This document shows positions 5,948 to 12,605 of a stretch of DNA of 61,379 nucleotides, piece after piece. Under the pieces are notes generated by a model. That model worked only from the letters and a program-made list of their open reading frames with translations. It made no database searches and was not told the DNA's origin. Where the stretch lies: positions 1-61,379 of the forward strand of contig WAKA01000126.1 in NCBI GenBank assembly GCA_015523565.1, in the 5' to 3' direction. How positions within the stretch are numbered: the stretch's first letter is position 1; every line of letters begins with the position of its first letter. Source of the stretch: Candidatus Heimdallarchaeota archaeon (GTDB lineage Archaea; Asgardarchaeota; Heimdallarchaeia; Heimdallarchaeales; Kariarchaeaceae). The position numbers were made by a program, and so were the translations under genes.

Positions 5948-7153
5948 CTATTGATTGTTATTGTTTGACATTCTCGATTCCAATAGTACCTTTAATTCAG
6001 TCTCAAATCCCAAAGTTTTGAGTGTAAGGGGTAAAAAGTCATATTCCTTGATATATCTAATATTTTGGATGCTCATTGTATATGTCTTTGGTTCATCGAT
6101 TATGTAATCATGTTTCAAATAATATCTCATCAATTCATCATGTGCATTGTTGAATTCCTCAAAACTCCGATGAGCGGAGATAATAAACCCGTCCAAATTT
6201 TTGGAAACATAGAAGAAAGGCGCTAACAGATTTCTCACCATTTCTGCAGCTTCCTGCCTTTGTCTCATTGTGGTTCTGGGATTGAATTTCCTGTAAGAAA
6301 ACACTAAGATTTTCATTCCCAGCTTTTGAAGGTCTGGTACCGCTCTTGGGAAACAAATGTTTTGTGCAAGGAATTTTCTTTTGGCATTTGCAACAGTGTT
6401 TCTTGAAACTCCCACCTCTTCTGCAATTAATGTATCCGATTCTTCAGGGAATTGGACAAGACCAGTCAAGACTTTCTTCTCTGCCTTTGTTAATTTGACA
6501 GGCTTGACCTTTCCAGTCGGTATTGTTTTTCTTTTCTCATAAGGTTCAGAGGCAAATCCAAATGTTTTTGCAACTAAACTCTCATAATCCATGAATGCAC
6601 GAATTCTCGTAATTTCAAATGGAAAGTGAACAACGTCCATTCCATTCTTGTCCAAAAATTTATTGTCAGAATACAGTTGAATGAACTTCTCTTGATTCTT
6701 TGCATATTCCGTAAGGTTCTTGCTGGCAGACAAATTGAATGCCTTGTTCGACTCACTGGCAATATGGAAATCCTCAACAAAAGATTGAAGCAAGTTCTTT
6801 GCCACTCGCATTCTTTCCTCTATGGTTGTAAATCGGTTCAAATGCCCATGCATCGCCACCAAAAGTTCCAATCCAATCTTTGGAAAATTCGGTACATAGT
6901 ACCGCTTGTAATATCCATTTTCCTTCAATCGTGTCTTAATGGAGGAAAAGGTGGACTTTTTCATGCCAATCTGTGAATGAACTGCTTGATCTGTTAAATC
7001 TGGCCATTTGATCAATGAATGCAAAACTCTTGCTTCATTTTGACTCAATCCGCTTACGCGATCTTCATTTAGGCTCCATTCATCATATCTCTGCATAGTA
7101 TACAACGGAATTAGGTAGTTGATCTTAAAAAACGTTTTGAAAATTTTCACCAA
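5948..7153 (-). CDS. Tandem-duplicated Lrp/AsnC-like winged-helix regulator
   Basis: Two similar halves: LSQNEARVLHSLIKWPDLTDQAVHSQIGMKKSTF...PNFPKIG and LTKAEKKVLTGLVQFPEESDTLIAEEVGVSRNTV...PDLQKLG. The true start is probably the later ATG (MQRYDE). Confidence 0.7.
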   Translation of the reverse strand: MVKIFKTFFKINYLIPLYTMQRYDEWSLNEDRVSGLSQNEARVLHSLIKWPDLTDQAVHSQIGMKKSTFSSIKTRLKENGYYKRYYVPNFPKIGLELLVAMHGHLNRFTTIEERMRVAKNLLQSFVEDFHIASESNKAFNLSASKNLTEYAKNQEKFIQLYSDNKFLDKNGMDVVHFPFEITRIRAFMDYESLVAKTFGFASEPYEKRKTIPTGKVKPVKLTKAEKKVLTGLVQFPEESDTLIAEEVGVSRNTVANAKRKFLAQNICFPRAVPDLQKLGMKILVFSYRKFNPRTTMRQRQEAAEMVRNLLAPFFYVSKNLDGFIISAHRSFEEFNNAHDELMRYYLKHDYIIDEPKTYTMSIQNIRYIKEYDFLPLTLKTLGFETELKVLLESRMSNNNNQ

Positions 7154-7396
7154 TCCAAAATCTGGAAAAATTCTTAATTTAGGTGTAGATTCTTACCGTG
7201 TACGCATAGTAATGGGATTTATAATGTAGTGTAAATTGTCGTGTTTGATCCTTTCGTTTTACAATATTCCTAATTGCCATTGTAAATCCAACTTAAATTC
7301 ATCCCTTTTAAAATTAATGAATTTTGTTTTTCATAATTCCAAATTTATTGACTTCAAGAAGAAAGACTTAAGGGAGTCATTGCTAATTAAGACATA

Positions 7397-7990
7397 GTGT
7401 CTTCAGAAATAAGAAGCTTTATTCGCCAAATTGAAAAATGGGTTGAAACCGATCCTGAAAAGGCATTGTCAGAGGGAATTACAGCAATTCAAAAAGAAGA
7501 TAGACTATTCAATTTTGAAGGGTCATATATCATTGCATCAAAACTTGCAGAAATTCTTGAACAATTGGGTGACAAAACGAGAGCTGCCAAAATGGCGGGA
7601 ATTGCGGCTATTAGAGCAACATTTCTGAACAATCCAATCGAGGAAAAAAAATCTTTGGCAAAATTGGATCCCGAAAGACCAATTTCATTGTTTGCTAATT
7701 CTATTGTAGATGGGAAAGGGGACGATAGTCACAAACACTACTACTTGCTTGAATTGGAACAGCAATCCCTTTGGGGGGATTTCAAAAAACTTACCCCTTT
7801 ACCGTTCATTGATTTTGAAAATGCCGATGAGGCAAAAATGATTTTGGAGGATTATTTTCCAAATGCAATCTATCATTTGCATATGATTGAAAGAAATACA
7901 CATCAAAAAAGGAGAATAGATATCCCCGTTGGACAGTTGGAGGAATTGGACGTAATTGAAACAGTTCGAACGGTTATAATTAAAATTTAA
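7397..7990 (+). CDS. Hypothetical protein with helical, TPR-like N-terminus
   Basis: 197-aa ORF, first of a co-directional five-gene cluster. No family recognised. Confidence 0.6.
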   Translation: MSSEIRSFIRQIEKWVETDPEKALSEGITAIQKEDRLFNFEGSYIIASKLAEILEQLGDKTRAAKMAGIAAIRATFLNNPIEEKKSLAKLDPERPISLFANSIVDGKGDDSHKHYYLLELEQQSLWGDFKKLTPLPFIDFENADEAKMILEDYFPNAIYHLHMIERNTHQKRRIDIPVGQLEELDVIETVRTVIIKI

Positions 7991-8061
7991 GAGTAAAGAA
8001 AAAGCATGCTGTCAATCCAGATGCACAATAAATTTTAAGGTTGAAAACAGTGTGATATTGA

Positions 8062-9687
8062 ATGAGCTTTGGCAAAAAACCATTGGGCAAGGCAATTTGG
8101 GGTACAACAACCTATCGAGTTCTATTAGAGACTTCCTCACAAGCATTTACAGAAGACATGACTGGTACACTTACGTTATATGAAAGAAGATGGGTTTCTC
8201 AACGTGCAGACTTTGAAAGTAGGAGTGAAATGATAAATGCTCTTCGAGAAATGTGGGAATCCTCATTAAGACAAGGGATTATACAGGATGCAAGATTTGC
8301 AAGATGGTTAGAGGAATATCTAAATGAAATTGGTATTGCTGTAGAATACGAAGATGTCTTAAAAGCAGTAAAAGGGGAAAAGTCAGATGTGGAAAAGTCT
8401 CATCTTTCTCCTGATGAGCTTGTTGAAGTATTAGGCAACGAAAAAGAGATGAAAGATGAGGAATTGAAGGAAATTTCAGAATCTTTTGATGGGATTGTCA
8501 CGACAGGTGTTTCTGTTGGATTTAATAGGGAAATTGCTATAGAGGAAACAGAAGAAATCCTTAGCACTCTAGTTGAAAAATATAAAACAAAGGCAAGGCT
8601 AACAACTTCTACAATTGTAAAATTCAAGGATCTTCAGGGTGAAGAAAGAACTATCCAATCAGAGGCGCCCATTATTTCTTCGCCTACAATTGGGGCAATG
8701 GTTCTCACAAGGGATTTTGTCAATTCATTCGGTTCCGAAATAGATTATTTGGAAATGGAAATTGTAATTCCATATGAATATGAAATCCACAATTTTATTG
8801 TCGATGGATCACTTTCTCGAATTGCAGAAATTGAAACTCCTGATGGTGTTCTTGTTAAGTGGAAATGCGAAAAACTCAAACCAGGGCAAAAGGTAGGGCT
8901 TACATATCACTTACTCCCCCGTATTACTCGAACAATTATCATTCAAACTCCCAAGATGGCCCAGATATTTCGGGTCTATGAAAAAATTGAGAAAAACAAT
9001 GGCTTGTTTGTAAGTGAGACCAAAATCAGTAATCCAACTTCTGAAACTATCTCTTCTGTTGCAGTTCTCGACCAAATTCCTCGATTTTTGAGCATAAGCC
9101 ATTCTTCTCCCCCCATCAATCCTCCATTGGCAACCACAAATGTAACGGAAGACAATTTTGAAGTCAATTGGTTATTTCAGAACCTGGCGCCAGATGGTTC
9201 ATTGGAAATACAGTATGAGCTACAAGAACGGCCTTATGTTGTGAGAGACATATATCTTGTCAAGACTCCAGAATCTGTTCCGATATTGGAAGGGCTCAAA
9301 ATAACGAAACCACTGAAAAGACAATCTGGTTATGGGGTTATCTTTGGATGTAGGGGTCTAAGACCAATTAATGAGCCAATAACAATTATTGATGAGCTTC
9401 CCAAGCACATGAGTGTTTCAATCATTGACATGACTTCCGGAGACATGTCTGTAACTGAAGAACGGGGTCGAATCCTTGTTAAATGGGAGCTTGAAAGATT
9501 GGAAAAAGATAAGGAGGAATTTGCATATCTCCGCTATAAATCAGAGGAAACATATGAGAATACCTCCCTAAACATTATGATAAAGGAAAATGAACCTGAA
9601 AGAATATTGGATTCGGAAACCAATAGGAAAGTTGATTCCATTGTTCTACCCCATAAATTCATAGAAGAGGTGGATACGCAATTCTGA
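8062..9687 (+). CDS. Cytoplasmic multi-beta-sandwich (Ig-like / mu-homology-like) protein
   Basis: Repeated [VI]xDx[IL]P...xW.....L.P......Y units (VLDQIPRFL...VNWLFQNLAPDGSLEIQY; IIDELPKHM...VKWELERL). No signal peptide. Resembles the 31085 ORF. Confidence 0.6.
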   Translation: MSFGKKPLGKAIWGTTTYRVLLETSSQAFTEDMTGTLTLYERRWVSQRADFESRSEMINALREMWESSLRQGIIQDARFARWLEEYLNEIGIAVEYEDVLKAVKGEKSDVEKSHLSPDELVEVLGNEKEMKDEELKEISESFDGIVTTGVSVGFNREIAIEETEEILSTLVEKYKTKARLTTSTIVKFKDLQGEERTIQSEAPIISSPTIGAMVLTRDFVNSFGSEIDYLEMEIVIPYEYEIHNFIVDGSLSRIAEIETPDGVLVKWKCEKLKPGQKVGLTYHLLPRITRTIIIQTPKMAQIFRVYEKIEKNNGLFVSETKISNPTSETISSVAVLDQIPRFLSISHSSPPINPPLATTNVTEDNFEVNWLFQNLAPDGSLEIQYELQERPYVVRDIYLVKTPESVPILEGLKITKPLKRQSGYGVIFGCRGLRPINEPITIIDELPKHMSVSIIDMTSGDMSVTEERGRILVKWELERLEKDKEEFAYLRYKSEETYENTSLNIMIKENEPERILDSETNRKVDSIVLPHKFIEEVDTQF

Positions 9688-9730
9688 TTGGTAATTACGT
9701 ACCCTTTTAATTGTTGTAATTAATAATAAT

Positions 9731-10456
9731 ATGAGAATGGTTGAATCAATAAAGAATTCTGGACTTCCAATTCCTGCTACACCCAAAAAAAAGGAAGAGG
9801 ACCCAAAAGAAAAAGATGAAATCATTTCCAAAGGAAAAAACAATGCATATATTCATGTAAGGGTAGACCCTCATTTTAAAGAAGACCTTCTAAAAAAAGT
9901 TGAAGAACAAAATACAAATTTGACTGCCTTCGTAGTCAATACACTTTCTGAAGCTGTCTACAAAAAAGAAGAAGAAGAAATTGACAAGGATGAGAAATTC
10001 TTGGATGAGATCTTGGATGCCATGGAAAATTTGGAAAGGAGAATTGAAATCCGACTTTCCACACTTCAAGACACCTTTAACTCATTGATTGGTCGACTTA
10101 TTGATTTTGAGAACAGAGAAAGGAAACGCAAAAAACGAAGAAGAGGTTCAAAAGACGATGATGAGGACGAAGACATCCGTTCTGCTTTGGAAAAGGAAAA
10201 TGTCCTGAAAATAGAACCTGAAAAGATTATTTATGCAAGGGTAAAAAGATATATTGAAAACCGAGGCTCAAACAACTTTCCAGAATACGAAGAAATCCTT
10301 GCCCACTTAGAAACGGATTCAAGAATAAAAGAATATTTAGATGTCCAAGGCGCTGATTTTCCAGGATGGAAGGAATCTTTGATAACTGATGCTATTGAAG
10401 AGGCCATAGAAGAGTTGGGTATTTCTGTTATTAGGAAAGGAGGTGAGAAGAAATAG
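9731..10456 (+). CDS. Ribbon-helix-helix DNA-binding protein with coiled coil and a basic/acidic tract
   Basis: AYIHVRVDPHFKEDLLKKVEEQNTNLTAFVVNTLSEAV fits the RHH pattern. It is followed by a heptad-like segment and RERKRKKRRRGSKDDDEDED. Confidence 0.6.
   Translation: MRMVESIKNSGLPIPATPKKKEEDPKEKDEIISKGKNNAYIHVRVDPHFKEDLLKKVEEQNTNLTAFVVNTLSEAVYKKEEEEIDKDEKFLDEILDAMENLERRIEIRLSTLQDTFNSLIGRLIDFENRERKRKKRRRGSKDDDEDEDIRSALEKENVLKIEPEKIIYARVKRYIENRGSNNFPEYEEILAHLETDSRIKEYLDVQGADFPGWKESLITDAIEEAIEELGISVIRKGGEKK
10439..10446 (+). promoter_or_regulatory. Shine-Dalgarno GGAGGTGA upstream of a putative ATA start (10453)
   Basis: Strong archaeal SD 6 nt before an in-frame ATA that overlaps the upstream TAG stop. 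Confidence 0.55.
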
Positions 10457-12012
10457 CCCGCCGTCCTTTCGTTCGAAGAAAATCAAATGAAAAACGAAAT
10501 GAAGAGGCCTTGGACATATTCAAGCTTTTCAATCGGCTTAGACCAAATACCCGCCAAAAGTATTACCGAATAATTAATAATTTTGCACAATTCCTTTTGA
10601 TCCACAAAAAATCATTATGGGATGCCACTGCGCTTGATATTCGAAAATATCTTCTCCAAGAGGGTGATGCACAAGCCCGTAGCATCCTAAAAACATTTTA
10701 CAGGATATTGATTGAATCTGGTGAATTCATAGGGGACAACCCTGTAATTGTCTTAGCAAACTTGGAAGAAGAAGAAAGAAAGCATGGCTTGGAAGAACCC
10801 AAAACAATTTCCACTGCCGAATCAGTCCTACAAAGCCTAAATCCAGACATGGATCTCAACACTGATCTTACAACCCCTCGTGTTCAAAAGAAAAAGAAAT
10901 TGCCCAAACCCATCATGACCTTGACAGATCTTGAACATCTTCTTAAAAGAACATCCCATATCAGGGAAAAGGCAATTTTGGAAGTACTTTTCTTTACTGG
11001 TGCCAAACTCAAAGAAATAGTTGATCTAAATGTTTCCGATGTCGATTTGGAAGGCAGAAAAATTCTCTTTTTTGAAAATAACCAAGAAGTCTCTAGAGCA
11101 ATTGCCATTCCAAAACGCGCATTAAATTACCTTAAGCTCTACGAAAGATGGAGATATCGCCAGCTTTCTCCCTCAAACGCCTACTTCATAACAAAGCGAA
11201 CAAAAGAAAGAATGAACGTTTCTACAATATCTACATGGCTTTATAGGCTCCAAAGGGACAAAGAACCTGAAAACCGCTGGACTGCCTCCGATTTCAGGAA
11301 AAGGGCAATACTTCAGCACTATTGGCTTACCAAGGATTTGGCATCCGTGACCCGTTTTGCAGGATTTAAAAGACCGGAAGCCACACTTCGTGTAGTCAAT
11401 CAAATCCTAATGGATCGTGGTATAGAAACACTAGACGAACTAGCTAACCTGCCTGAATTTGAAGACTTGGAAAAAGACCGGAAAAAAGCAAGCACTAGAT
11501 TGGAAGAGCAATCCACAACCATTACCATCAATCTTGATCCTGATGAACTTGAAATAATCAGAAAATCAGGCTTGACCCCAACCCAAGCTGTCAAAACGGT
11601 TATTTCCTTGAAAGACCTTTATTCTGCCTTTGCTCCCGTTGCCGCGGCTCCGGCAAGATCTGCACCTTCAGCCAGCTTGGCCGCTGCCATGAATGTCGGT
11701 AAGCCAGGAGGGGTACCAAGTTTAGGCAGTAAGGCAAAACGTGAAAGTAAACCCAAGCCCATGAAACCCAAAGGACCTATTGGTCCACGACCGGGTGGTC
11801 CTGGGCCAGCCCCCATGGGTGGCGGCGGTCTAAGTTTCCTAAGCGAGCTAAAGGCCAAACTTCAAGCAAGAAACAAAGAGCAAAAAGAAAAGAAGGAGAT
11901 TACTGTAGGTCCCCAAGATCACTTTTCAAATGTAAAAATTGTTGATGCCAATTCACCTAATGAAGAGGAAACAAAAGAGGACGAAGAGGATAAAGAAAAG
12001 ACGGAAAGCTGA
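10453..12012 (+). CDS. Catalytically degenerate tyrosine-recombinase (Xer/integrase)-fold protein with Pro/Gly-rich tail
   Basis: SAM-like N-domain (NTRQKYYRIINNFAQFL...ATALDIRKYL). Box I EKAILEVLFFTGAKLKEIVDLNVSDVD; box II TASDFRK...DLASVTRFAGFKRPEATLRV. The ORF-track start is TTG 10510, but the frame is open back to 10447. Confidence 0.8.
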   Translation: MARRPFVRRKSNEKRNEEALDIFKLFNRLRPNTRQKYYRIINNFAQFLLIHKKSLWDATALDIRKYLLQEGDAQARSILKTFYRILIESGEFIGDNPVIVLANLEEEERKHGLEEPKTISTAESVLQSLNPDMDLNTDLTTPRVQKKKKLPKPIMTLTDLEHLLKRTSHIREKAILEVLFFTGAKLKEIVDLNVSDVDLEGRKILFFENNQEVSRAIAIPKRALNYLKLYERWRYRQLSPSNAYFITKRTKERMNVSTISTWLYRLQRDKEPENRWTASDFRKRAILQHYWLTKDLASVTRFAGFKRPEATLRVVNQILMDRGIETLDELANLPEFEDLEKDRKKASTRLEEQSTTITINLDPDELEIIRKSGLTPTQAVKTVISLKDLYSAFAPVAAAPARSAPSASLAAAMNVGKPGGVPSLGSKAKRESKPKPMKPKGPIGPRPGGPGPAPMGGGGLSFLSELKAKLQARNKEQKEKKEITVGPQDHFSNVKIVDANSPNEEETKEDEEDKEKTES

Positions 12013-12033
12013 TTGAATAAATTTTTATGAGTA

Positions 12034-12354
12034 TTGGTTCGATATAATTACATGGAAGATGAGAAATTTTACAAGACATTGCGGTTAAATATTTTGGAAA
12101 TGCTTAAGCCGAGCGCCGCCCGAAAAAACCGTCCTAAACTTACAGATGTTGATTTTTTGGCAAAAATTAAATCTCTTTACATCTTAAGCAAAAGAAAACC
12201 AACAAAAGACGAAACAATGAAGTGTATTAAGGATCTCATTGATTTTGGGTATGTCAAAGAATCCAAAATGGATTCGGTAACCATTTGGTCAATAACTGAT
12301 AAAGGTGTTGATGCATTAAAACAGCTTTCACATGGTGAAGAGGTCAAAATTTAA
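12034..12354 (+). CDS. Small winged-helix protein
   Basis: TKDETMKCIKDLIDFGYVKE...WSITDKGVDAL is a wHTH recognition helix plus wing signature. Confidence 0.65.
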   Translation: MVRYNYMEDEKFYKTLRLNILEMLKPSAARKNRPKLTDVDFLAKIKSLYILSKRKPTKDETMKCIKDLIDFGYVKESKMDSVTIWSITDKGVDALKQLSHGEEVKI

Positions 12355-12605
12355 AGAAGTGAAACCATTTCTTGAATGGTATTCATGAGAAAGGTATTGG
12401 ATGTTCCCTCCTGAAGTAATTCATTTACAATTTTGGAAACAGTTTTTTTGTCAGGTATTGAATTTCGCAAAATTTCAATTTTTGTTGTTGTTGGGATCTC
12501 TTCCTTCTCCAAAATTTTTCTGACCATCTCTTTATAAATAAAGTAGTCAGACATCATTTCGACTTCTTTTTCGCGCATCATAGCAGCATGCTCAGCATCA
12601 CACAC
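12351..12605 (-). CDS. Small hypothetical protein
   Basis: 84-aa ORF converging on the wHTH gene. Start uncertain. Confidence 0.45.
   Translation of the reverse strand: MCDAEHAAMMREKEVEMMSDYFIYKEMVRKILEKEEIPTTTKIEILRNSIPDKKTVSKIVNELLQEGTSNTFLMNTIQEMVSLL

Follow-up and report, generated by a model that had tools for sequence, protein, structure and literature searches.

The question raised by this locus, which lies on a Heimdallarchaeota contig analysed as a window of 61,379 nucleotides, is what an integrase-fold protein lacking the catalytic residues of its family does with a conserved C-terminal extension. The body of the protein (P0001) has an integrase-fold profile: residues 141-292 match Phage_integrase (PF00589, E 4.8e-12), and a SAM-like N-domain matches PF02899 at the cut-off. 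Inspected by eye in an alignment of 23 sequences (A1, the source of all per-region pairwise identities given below), the catalytic R-K-H-R-(H/W)-Y set is absent: the Arg-I column varies between K, Q and R, the box reads D-F-R-K-R, the last His is Y or F, and no conserved Tyr occupies the nucleophile position. We infer that the body is a DNA-binding-type pseudo-enzyme, in which the dead integrase and the adjoining RHH-like element are predicted to bind DNA. P0001 resembles inactive DNA-binding proteins of the tyrosine-recombinase fold, which have lost the catalytic set and presumably retain the fold in order to bind DNA; we know of none that carries a conserved, disordered docking arm. The gene is present as a single copy in its own genome and occurs in 13 of 400 genomes of the phylum, confined to two families of one order. 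The final 170 residues (positions 11500-12012 of the window) gave no Pfam match at all over aa 331-500, and it is this segment that the original prediction had read as a VASP/WH2-like module linking DNA directly to actin.

All the strings on which that prediction was built are present in P0001 in the order stated (Table 1). Across 30 or more orthologues the tail keeps a constant architecture: a beta-alpha-alpha element of RHH-like pattern, a disordered P/G/S spacer, a single conserved helix and an acidic end. The spacer of P0001 contains the genus-specific SLAAAMNVGK, one VPSLG unit and a P/G run, and over aa 461-500 the acidic residues (D+E = 13) outnumber the basic ones (K+R = 6).

Table 1. 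Features of the pseudo-recombinase locus, with nucleotide positions numbered in the window.
Feature	Position	Strand	Basis
Upstream partner gene: RHH-like N-terminus, coiled coil, then basic and acidic run	9731..10456	+	tblastn
Integrase-fold pseudo-recombinase with C-terminal extension, P0001, 500 aa	10510..12012	+	ORF list and translation
RHH-like beta-alpha-alpha element, TITINLDPDELEIIRKSGLTPTQAV..., aa 337-374	11518..11631	+	Conservation; AF2 helices 344-353 and 357-373
Disordered A/P/G/S/K-rich spacer, aa 375-436	11632..11817	+	AF2 pLDDT 32-39
SLAAAMNVGK, aa 389-398	11674..11703		
PKPMKPKGPIGPRPGGPGPAPM, aa 415-436	11752..11817		
GGGGLSFLSELKAKLQARNK, aa 437-456	11818..11877		
G-run and predicted docking helix, aa 437-463, core LSFLSELKAKLQARNK at aa 441-456	11818..11898	+	AF2, conservation, HMMs
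Short conserved 'hGxKIhD' motif, HFSNVKIVD, aa 471-479	11920..11946	+	Recurs in orthologues
Acidic disordered end, aa 480-500	11947..12009	+	Composition; AF2 pLDDT <50

Conservation along the tail is concentrated in islands. The RHH-like element has the highest mean pairwise identity of the whole protein (0.74 in A1, compared with 0.67 in the integrase core), with G354, P357, T358 and Q359 invariant. The original label of this element rests on its beta-alpha-alpha pattern and two predicted helices, but the element matched neither Pfam families nor PDB sequences, and the RHH assignment is therefore pattern-based only; the element is probably an additional DNA-binding or dimerisation element. 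The sole yield of the PDB search with its profile, a 'GLTPxQAV' match to TALE repeats, was rejected as coincidental. Identity falls to 0.53 in the helix, 0.41 in the spacer, 0.23 after the helix and 0.25 in the acidic end. Within the helix, E446, L447, L451 and R454 are each at least 90% conserved, and the most distant orthologues, in the second family at about 34% identity, retain it as 'AAYISELKEILKKRRQ'. Retention of the 'FLSELKAKL' helix in orthologues was a check set in advance, and it was confirmed. AF2 predicts a helix at aa 441-460 with pLDDT 76-79 between flanking segments at 32-39; the helix is not confidently packed on the core, and the pTM of the whole model is 0.26. A further small island is the 'hGxKIhD' motif (mean identity 0.37 vs 0.23-0.25 in its flanks), present in every orthologue group in variants such as LGGKIVD, LGAIIKD and TGKIVVKKD. 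Two of the strings that had seemed significant fared less well. SLAAAMNVGK is confined to the genus, being present in the closest relatives (P0003-P0006) alone, and the LKK-unit HMM described below does not pick it up; of the P/G run it is the composition, and nothing beyond it, that is conserved.

The helix recurs in a second protein. A separate scaffold protein with a coiled coil (the P0025 family), found in 41 of 47 genomes of the same order, has as its C-terminal half a cassette in which P[SN]LG repeats are followed by LKK(A/V) helices and then by an 'ELKxxLxxRR' helix. The scaffold as a whole comprises an oligomerising coil, P/G repeats, LKK(A/V) helices, a basic RR helix and an end helix. 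An HMM of the tail helix retrieved scaffold proteins at 17-23 bits (E 5e-5 to 3e-3), the best unrelated ORF among 16.4k ORFs of the same genome reaching 7.5 bits, and profile searches run genome by genome returned scaffold members from three families (E 3e-5 to 9e-4). In the reciprocal direction, an HMM built from scaffold helices only placed the P0001 ORF first of 16,464 at 11.6 bits, with a marginal E of 0.17 and a runner-up at 5.8 bits, and it matched the integrase orthologues at E 1e-4 to 3e-3. HMMs in both directions thus find in P0001, after the G-run, a helix of the pattern 'h-x-x-E-L-K-x-x-L-x-x-R-(R/N/K)': by these comparisons the predicted docking helix is the 'RR-type' helix of the shared cassette. 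Together, the spacer and helix of the P0001 tail copy this cassette, which is confined to a single order of Heimdall-group archaea. The link between the scaffold cassette and a dead recombinase is what is new here.

These matches bear directly on the caveat attached to the original prediction, that the resemblance might be a product of low complexity. A tail rich in P, G, S, K and E that matches nothing in Pfam, the PDB or the Atlas could be chance sequence of no specific function; nothing relevant came from sequence or profile searches of the PDB with the tail, or with the C-terminal half of the scaffold, and the ESM Atlas gave no usable match for either protein. Chance sequence is largely refuted, however, by conservation and by the cross-family HMM matches: the helix and the RHH-like element persist as islands down to about 34% identity, and the matches run both ways, well above the proteome background. 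We regard this explanation as scarcely credible. What the evidence supports instead, at the level of sequence, is that selection has kept the tail as a modular docking arm attached to a DNA-binding-type body.

How complete the cassette is varies among the integrase orthologues. Their spacers hold 1-10 P[SN]L[GKSD] units; P0001, with one (VPSLG), carries a reduced cassette without the LKK unit. An LKK-type unit stands directly before the helix in L015 (26.3 bits, iE 5e-6), in L004/P0008 (16 bits) and in P0023 (6-13 bits). The variants also appear to change together in the two proteins. The integrase unit of genome G045 is most similar to the scaffold units of its own genome, with scores of 82 and 75 vs at most 57 elsewhere; in G049 the PNLK variant is shared by the integrase-fold protein and the scaffold, as is PSL[DE] in G051, so that this co-variation rests on 2-3 informative genomes. 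Blastn between the integrase and scaffold loci of G045 found no DNA similarity, which argues against recent gene conversion. Outside the two proteins, the LKK-type unit has a weak match (E 9e-5) in a TPR protein of about 940 aa, where some 8-9 such repeats can be seen by eye at the N-terminus. Searched against 1.84 billion proteins, the unit profile gave 15 matches, none with an annotation and 13 plainly family-like. Of the five whose sequences were inspected, P0040 and P0041 appear to be unrelated repeat proteins, and no eukaryotic WH2 protein could be made out in this set; no longer relatives were found for the metatranscriptome fragment P0042.

Sharing of the cassette also helps to weigh an explanation that needs no outside partner, in which the basic helix and acidic end fold back onto the DNA-binding surfaces and gate DNA binding, in the manner of the acidic tails of HMGB1 and SSB. 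Such a tail would suit the succession of a basic helix and a strongly acidic disordered end on a DNA-binding-type protein. Acidic, disordered C-terminal tails or tips are well known on DNA-binding proteins, for instance bacterial SSB, with its 'DDDIPF', and HMGB1. Most orthologues outside the genus of P0001 end in an acidic run and a hydrophobic tip, 'I(S/P)D(L/M)P(D/T)F(D/E)(F/L)' or '(I/L)PD(L/M)PDF(D/E)(F/L)', whose 'PDF(D/E)(F/L)' recalls the SSB tip; unlike them, P0001 and its genus lack the tip. Intramolecular gating, however, leaves unexplained why a scaffold without a DNA-binding domain should carry this helix and these repeats, and why repeat and unit variants co-vary between both proteins, and AF2 gives no confident packing of helix on core (low pTM, disordered flanks). 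We judge it improbable.

A docking arm could also serve a membrane or the division machinery. Tethering of DNA to the membrane by an amphipathic helix would be in keeping with a short helix, containing Leu/Phe as well as Lys/Arg, that a flexible arm carries at its end, but its hydrophobic moment, at 0.09-0.12 over 18 residues, is low, the mean hydrophobicity is negative, a strongly acidic segment follows and the helix is not at the extreme terminus, which makes this reading very improbable. Alternatively, the helices may be MIM1-like tails that bind MIT domains of Vps4 or other ESCRT-associated proteins, linking DNA to division. By eye, the spacing D-L-x3-h-x2-L-[KR]-K of the LKK units recurs at the C-terminal ends of the two ESCRT-III proteins of the genome ('DLEKEIEELRKDD' and 'LEDELEALKKELEGK'). 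Yet these two Snf7-family/ESCRT-III tails score negative bits with both HMMs and rank beyond 1000 among own-genome domains, the RR-type helix has Arg or Ala where MIM1 has its third hydrophobic residue, and ESCRT-III and Vps4 are Asgard-wide whereas the cassette is restricted to one order. We consider a MIM1-type tail quite improbable.

In its strong form, the proposal that started this work makes the tail a true actin-binding module of WH2/VASP-EVH2 type and P0001 a direct DNA-to-actin linker. Such a linker could serve, for example, in actin-based chromosome positioning or in actin-dependent control of DNA binding. Part of the resemblance stands. In the scaffold and in full-cassette orthologues, the order of P/G repeats, LKK(A/V), basic RR helix and, in the scaffold only, an end helix parallels the PRR-GAB-FAB-coiled coil order of VASP, as well as tandem-WH2 proteins, and AF2 gives a short isolated helix at each unit. 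The VASP GAB is printed as ..AKLRKVS and the FAB as ..MLARRRKAT (PMC10340426), and scaffold units (..ALSSLKKV, ..ALAGLKKAP) show LKKV-type motifs on inspection by eye, as do orthologues L015 and L004. According to a published report (PMC9433394), Asgard gelsolin, including that of Heimdall archaea, uses an LKHV/LRRT-type motif to contact actin; this genome encodes a two-domain gelsolin and one strong eukaryote-like actin (456 bits, on another contig).

Measurable similarity to VASP or WH2 was what did not hold, and the cassette fails every formal comparison in Pfam, in the PDB and in shuffles of GAB and FAB. PF02205 (WH2) gave no match to the tail at E<=1 and none at E<=10 to the scaffold, 26 isolated units or the TPR array, nor did the thymosin and VASP families of Pfam; a six-frame scan of the whole genome with PF02205 returned just three 11-bit chance matches elsewhere, and the unit profile found none at E<=10 among PDB chains, WH2-actin complexes included. 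Against the tail-helix HMM, human VASP FAB reaches 2.1 bits, equalled or bettered by 132 of 5000 shuffles (3%), and GAB scores 1.8 bits against the unit HMM, equalled or bettered by 669 of 5000 (13%); the VASP GAB/FAB likeness is, as a matter of sequence statistics, indistinguishable from composition. The own-genome gelsolin gave no score with the unit or the tail-helix HMM. P0001 itself ends its helix in ...LQARNK, without an L-(K/R)-(K/R)-(V/T)-type motif, and the other supposed element, SLAAAMNVGK, is not conserved. Pfam detects neither EVH1 nor VASP_tetra domains in it, its tail has no PPP run and hence no polyproline, and its C-terminus is acidic and disordered; the profilin of Heimdall LC_2, from the same clade, is in any case reported not to bind VASP polyproline (PMC8410842).

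Compared feature by feature, the full cassette and the EVH2 plus proline-rich region of Ena/VASP both present short motifs within disordered sequence (P/G-rich repeats, an LKK(A/V) helix, a G-run with a basic RR(R/A)K helix), and the scaffold family also has an oligomerising coil. The differences are that the cassette shows no statistical similarity, EVH1 or polyproline and that the main coil of the scaffold is N-terminal. In the integrase copy, moreover, an acidic tail replaces the tetramerisation coil, the N-terminal body is a DNA-binding-type pseudo-enzyme and P0001 lacks the LKK unit. With WH2/beta-thymosin and tandem-WH2 proteins (Spire, Cobl, VopL/VopF), the scaffold and some orthologues share an amphipathic helix, L-K-K-(V/A) and an acidic 'xEEK', in units repeated 2-4 times after a Pro-rich region and beside an oligomerisation element. 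Unlike WH2, the cassette goes undetected by PF02205 and has, by eye, a shorter helix-to-LKK spacing than the canonical motif, and the tail helix of P0001 has no LKK motif at all.

A further comparison is with ParR, the centromere-binding adaptor of type II (ParMRC) partition systems. ParR couples an element of RHH type that binds DNA to a C-terminal helix by way of a disordered tail, and this helix docks in the cleft of an actin-like filament protein. P0001 has an element of RHH-like pattern, a disordered tail and a helix. Its body, however, is a dead integrase plus the RHH-like element, its helix is not terminal, and no actin-like ATPase gene or iteron array adjoins it: no family of iterons or centromere-like repeats was found at positions 6800-12500 of the window, and no actin, gelsolin or other cytoskeletal genes lie near the integrase or scaffold loci. 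This lack of linkage to actin genes and of ParMRC-type neighbours counts, with the results above, against a direct DNA-to-actin linker of WH2/VASP-EVH2 type, which we hold to be doubtful. What does adjoin the gene is the upstream partner, found by tblastn directly 5' in 10 of 10 orthologous loci, including those of the distant family. The beta-sandwich neighbours of the integrase and scaffold loci were considered as paralogues and ruled out (E 0.22).

Since the same cassette occurs in a VASP-like scaffold, the pseudo-recombinase probably tethers DNA to a shared partner. The explanation that we favour, and consider probable, is that P0001 is a DNA-bound adaptor whose last ~165 residues form a docking arm for a partner common to the scaffold. 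In this model, the dead integrase body and its obligatory upstream RHH/coiled-coil partner would sit on DNA, and the flexible arm would display the helix as a short linear motif. The displayed helix would then recruit the partner of the scaffold helices or bring P0001 to that partner, while the acidic end may tune DNA binding or bear a second docking tip, lost in this genus. Actin is the leading candidate for the common partner, though a tentative one, put forward by analogy: the scaffold layout resembles Ena/VASP and tandem-WH2 proteins, gelsolin uses LKHV/LRRT motifs, and a eukaryote-like actin is encoded. It is rather unlikely that the full archaeal DNA-actin tether exists, in which the dead recombinase and its partner mark DNA sites that are coupled to the eukaryote-like actin through a WH2/VASP-like cassette.

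Asgard archaea possess actin, profilin and gelsolin, and we know of no nucleator, elongator or cargo adaptor for Asgard actin. That an eye-catching VASP GAB/FAB likeness turns out no different from composition is a negative result that also matters. Were the DNA-actin tether true, it could serve chromosome positioning or segregation, functionally similar to ParR-ParM but acting on a true actin, or, alternatively, actin-state-dependent control of DNA binding, functionally similar to the eukaryotic MRTF-type sensors of G-actin; in that case the cassette borne by the coiled-coil scaffold would be the functional equivalent of Ena/VASP in archaea. More broadly, one short docking cassette is carried by at least two proteins of a single Heimdall order, an Ena/VASP-like oligomeric scaffold and a DNA-binding-type pseudo-recombinase, and thereby defines a small network of the type 'motif plus unknown hub'. 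If the hub is something other than actin, the cassette would mark an undescribed, lineage-specific interaction system around a conserved chromosomal protein; should the hub be actin, the carriers of the cassette would be the first factors for actin assembly and actin tethering from archaea, and would provide a direct link between DNA and the cytoskeleton in the closest relatives of eukaryotes.

The stretch under study belongs to the gene for P0001, an integrase-fold pseudo-recombinase in which Pfam recognises a SAM-like N-domain and a tyrosine-recombinase domain (aa 141-292, E 4.8e-12), with no match on the last 170 aa; its 'dead' label reflects a reading of the catalytic residues made by eye. 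An antisense ORF (11619-11858) was set aside as a mirror of the P/G-rich coding sequence, nothing more. P0001 has 22 database homologues, including ones named Heimdallarchaeota LC_2 'XerC' and Kariarchaeaceae. The gene is single-copy and lineage-restricted: of 400 Asgard genomes, the carriers come from just two families within a single order and have one orthologue each (9 of 11 genomes plus the window's own in one family, 3/3 in the other). It is paired with an RHH/coiled-coil gene, which lies immediately upstream in all 10 orthologous loci, the distant family included. A downstream wHTH gene is limited to the window's genus, and no iterons or centromere-like repeats were found around the operon.

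Coordinates of the pseudo-recombinase, its tail elements and related genes, with mean pairwise identity in the 23-sequence orthologue alignment (A1)
Feature	Coordinates	Strand	Identity (A1)	Remark
Whole gene, 500 aa (P0001)	window:10510-12012	+		window 11500-12012 is its 3' third
Integrase core			0.67	
RHH-like segment	aa 337-374	+		string quoted by original prediction, present
SLAAAMNVGK	aa 389-398	+		string quoted by original prediction, present
P/G run	aa 415-436	+		string quoted by original prediction, present
GGGG plus helix	aa 437-463	+		string quoted by original prediction, present
Acidic end	aa 480-500	+	0.25	element quoted by original prediction, present
Tail helix			0.53	
Spacer			0.41	
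Post-helix segment			0.23	
Upstream gene	window:9731-10456	+		RHH-like N-terminus, coiled coil, 'RKRKKRRRGSK' then 'DDDEDED'
Scaffold P0025, 395 aa	G000 contig C222:19840-21024 (= L016:7841-9025)	+		own-genome motif scan
143-aa protein, G051 contig C31	L055:1129-1557	-		RR-type helix, E 0.003 per genome
~900-aa protein, G040 contig C15	L056:494-3316	-		weak LKK-unit profile match, E 9e-5

The original prediction had read the tail as a VASP/WH2-like module, and every string that it quoted is present in P0001 in the claimed order (aa 337-500). The helix, whose conservation it had proposed to check, is kept even in the most distant orthologues (~34% identity), as 'AAYISELKEILKKRRQ'. SLAAAMNVGK does not hold as a conserved element, being confined in A1 to the closest relatives (P0003-P0006), nor does the P/G run, of which composition alone is kept. 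The RHH-like element has the highest mean pairwise identity of any stretch of the protein (0.74), and sequence comparison gave no confirmation of the RHH label. AF2 on the alignment predicts helices at 344-353 and 357-373, disorder at 374-440 (pLDDT 32-39), and a helix at 441-460 (pLDDT 76-79) followed by disorder. Together with the conservation pattern, this gives a tail that opens with a small folded element, runs through a flexible spacer to a single short conserved helix and closes on an acidic stretch. The tail is therefore more than low-complexity sequence: it is a conserved, modular, mostly disordered arm. A role for the helix as a membrane anchor is unlikely, given its hydrophobic moment of 0.09-0.12 and the acidic segment behind it.

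The RHH-like element contains an invariant 'GLTPTQAV' turn ('SGLTPTQAV', aa 353-361, window:11566-11592), which in a PDB profile search matched the TALE-repeat 'GLTPxQVV' (summed E 0.019); at ~0-5 bits per repeat, we take this as coincidence. Some 15-25 aa past the tail helix lies a second motif, 'HFSNVKIVD' (hGxKIhD, window:11920-11946), kept in all orthologue groups, with 'TGKIVVKKD' in the distant family. In most orthologues the C-terminus is an acidic run capped by 'I(S/P)D(L/M)P(D/T)F(D/E)(F/L)' (A1 columns ~720-735; e.g. P0009-P0024, L002-L006), and the window's genus (P0001, P0003-P0006) is without a 'PDF(D/E)(F/L)'-type tip. By eye, the orthologues' tip resembles the C-terminal one of bacterial SSB, and it looks like a candidate second docking site that has been gained or lost. 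In the orthologue L010 (genome G052), additional 'GGPSLG(A/S)KK' repeats past the helix replace the plain acidic end, which indicates that the repeat region can occupy either side of the helix.

A scan of the window's own genome for the tail's motifs led to the coiled-coil scaffold protein P0025. Its N-terminal coil (AF2 helix 16-69) is followed by some 13 'GGPNLGGAPS' repeats, then by three short helices of type '..DAIKGALSSLKKVPKEE' ('..ALSSLKK(V)') and a conserved end helix '..MKSLLQEKLKAAFK' (AF2). Its relatives often have an extra helix past the LKK units ('NAVLSELSQVLQRRRKRS', 'FGYQSELKQKLQARSD' or 'KSEFASILEKRRQ'), and this is the pseudo-recombinase's own tail helix. The LKK-unit family occurs in 41 of the order's 47 genomes (E<=0.01), where the scaffold is a single gene, and in none of 353 Asgard genomes outside the order at E<=1e-4; against 1.84 billion proteins, the profile gave just 15 matches at E<=1e-3. 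In that search P0042 (101 aa) and P0039 (158 aa) appeared, built almost entirely of 'GGFNPAAALKGL(K/R)' units. The source of P0042, a marine metatranscriptome catalogue ('merc', ERR1712023), suggests oceanic transcription of a member of the family. Another carrier of the RR-type helix is a 143-aa protein whose helical N-part leads through a P/Q/T-rich linker to a C-terminal '..SELQNLLQRRRARR' / '..SSVTSELQNLLQRRRARRAQKKK'. A weak match to the LKK-unit profile fell on a ~900-aa protein that starts with about 8-9 tandem ~28-aa units 'xxDLxxxIxDxxxxLKKVxxEEKxxx' before a large TPR region.

Judged by sequence profiles, the link between recombinase tail and scaffold is statistical rather than visual. 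An HMM of the tail helix from 26 integrase sequences gives 17-23 bits (E 5e-5 to 3e-3) on scaffold members, against 7.5 bits for the best unrelated ORF among the 16,464 of the genome, and per-genome profile searches recovered the scaffold in three of the order's families, plus the 143-aa protein. Conversely, an HMM of scaffold helices only gives the window's gene the top score in its own genome (11.6 bits, E 0.17; second best 5.8 bits), and integrase orthologues match it with E-values of 1e-4 to 3e-3. A complete LKK-type unit directly precedes the helix in several integrase orthologues, namely L015 (26.3 bits, iE 5e-6), L004/P0008 (16 bits) and P0023; P[SN]L[GKSD] repeats, as many as ten, are present in these orthologues as well. 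The two-way matches and these orthologues therefore indicate that the full cassette (repeats, LKK helix, RR helix) is common to both families, with a reduced form in the window's genus (one VPSLG and the RR helix, without the LKK unit). In genome G045, the integrase LKK unit has its closest counterparts in the scaffold units of the same genome (scores 82 and 75 versus <=57 for other genomes); blastn between the two loci found no similarity, so the likeness is maintained at the protein level and is no recent copy. The repeat variants PNLK (G049) and PSL[DE] (G051) likewise appear in integrase and scaffold alike. With only two or three informative genomes, this co-variation is suggestive, hinting at a partner common to both proteins. 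What is new here is a dead recombinase with the scaffold's cassette, brought out by two-way HMMs, full-cassette orthologues and within-genome co-variation.

The element layout of the cassette and scaffold parallels that of Ena/VASP, human VASP having a PRR, a GAB (223-APGLAAAIAGAKLRKVS-239), a FAB (259-278) and a coiled coil (PMC10340426). However, the window's tail helix differs from WH2 in lacking the LKK motif, and its P/G run from Ena/VASP in lacking polyproline; in Heimdall LC_2, which belongs to this clade, profilin reportedly does not bind VASP polyproline (PMC8410842). The proposed VASP/WH2 kinship failed every formal test: Pfam WH2 matched neither the tail, the scaffold, 26 isolated units, the TPR array nor the six-frame genome, and the LKK-unit profile found no PDB chain at E<=10. 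VASP FAB scored 2.1 bits with the tail-helix HMM (equalled by 132 of 5000 shuffles) and GAB 1.8 bits with the LKK-unit HMM (669/5000). No actin or gelsolin gene lies in the neighbourhoods of either family. In the literature, WH2-like motifs in Asgard archaea were found in gelsolin linkers only, and no Ena/VASP-like or tandem-WH2 factors were found. Alternatively, the helix may bind an MIT domain or ESCRT partner, since LKK units and ESCRT-III MIM1 tails have the common spacing D-L-x3-h-x2-L-[KR]-K, but ESCRT-III tails score with neither HMM, and the resemblance is as visual as the VASP one, like those to ParR and the SSB tip.

The arm's helix and repeats are common to a separate scaffold family, and the arm is probably an adaptor, whichever its partner. 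Actin leads the candidates, doubtful as that identification is, on the basis of the scaffold's VASP-like/tandem-WH2-like grammar, the eukaryote-like actin encoded in the window's own genome, and Heimdall gelsolin, reported to contact actin via an LKHV/LRRT-type motif (PMC9433394). Some other hub may take actin's place, or the tail may regulate intramolecularly. The tail's RHH-like element might pair with the RHH of the upstream gene as a heterodimer. As an adaptor, the dead integrase and RHH-like element, together with the partner protein, would bind DNA, and the arm would offer a short linear motif to the same partner that the scaffold helices bind.
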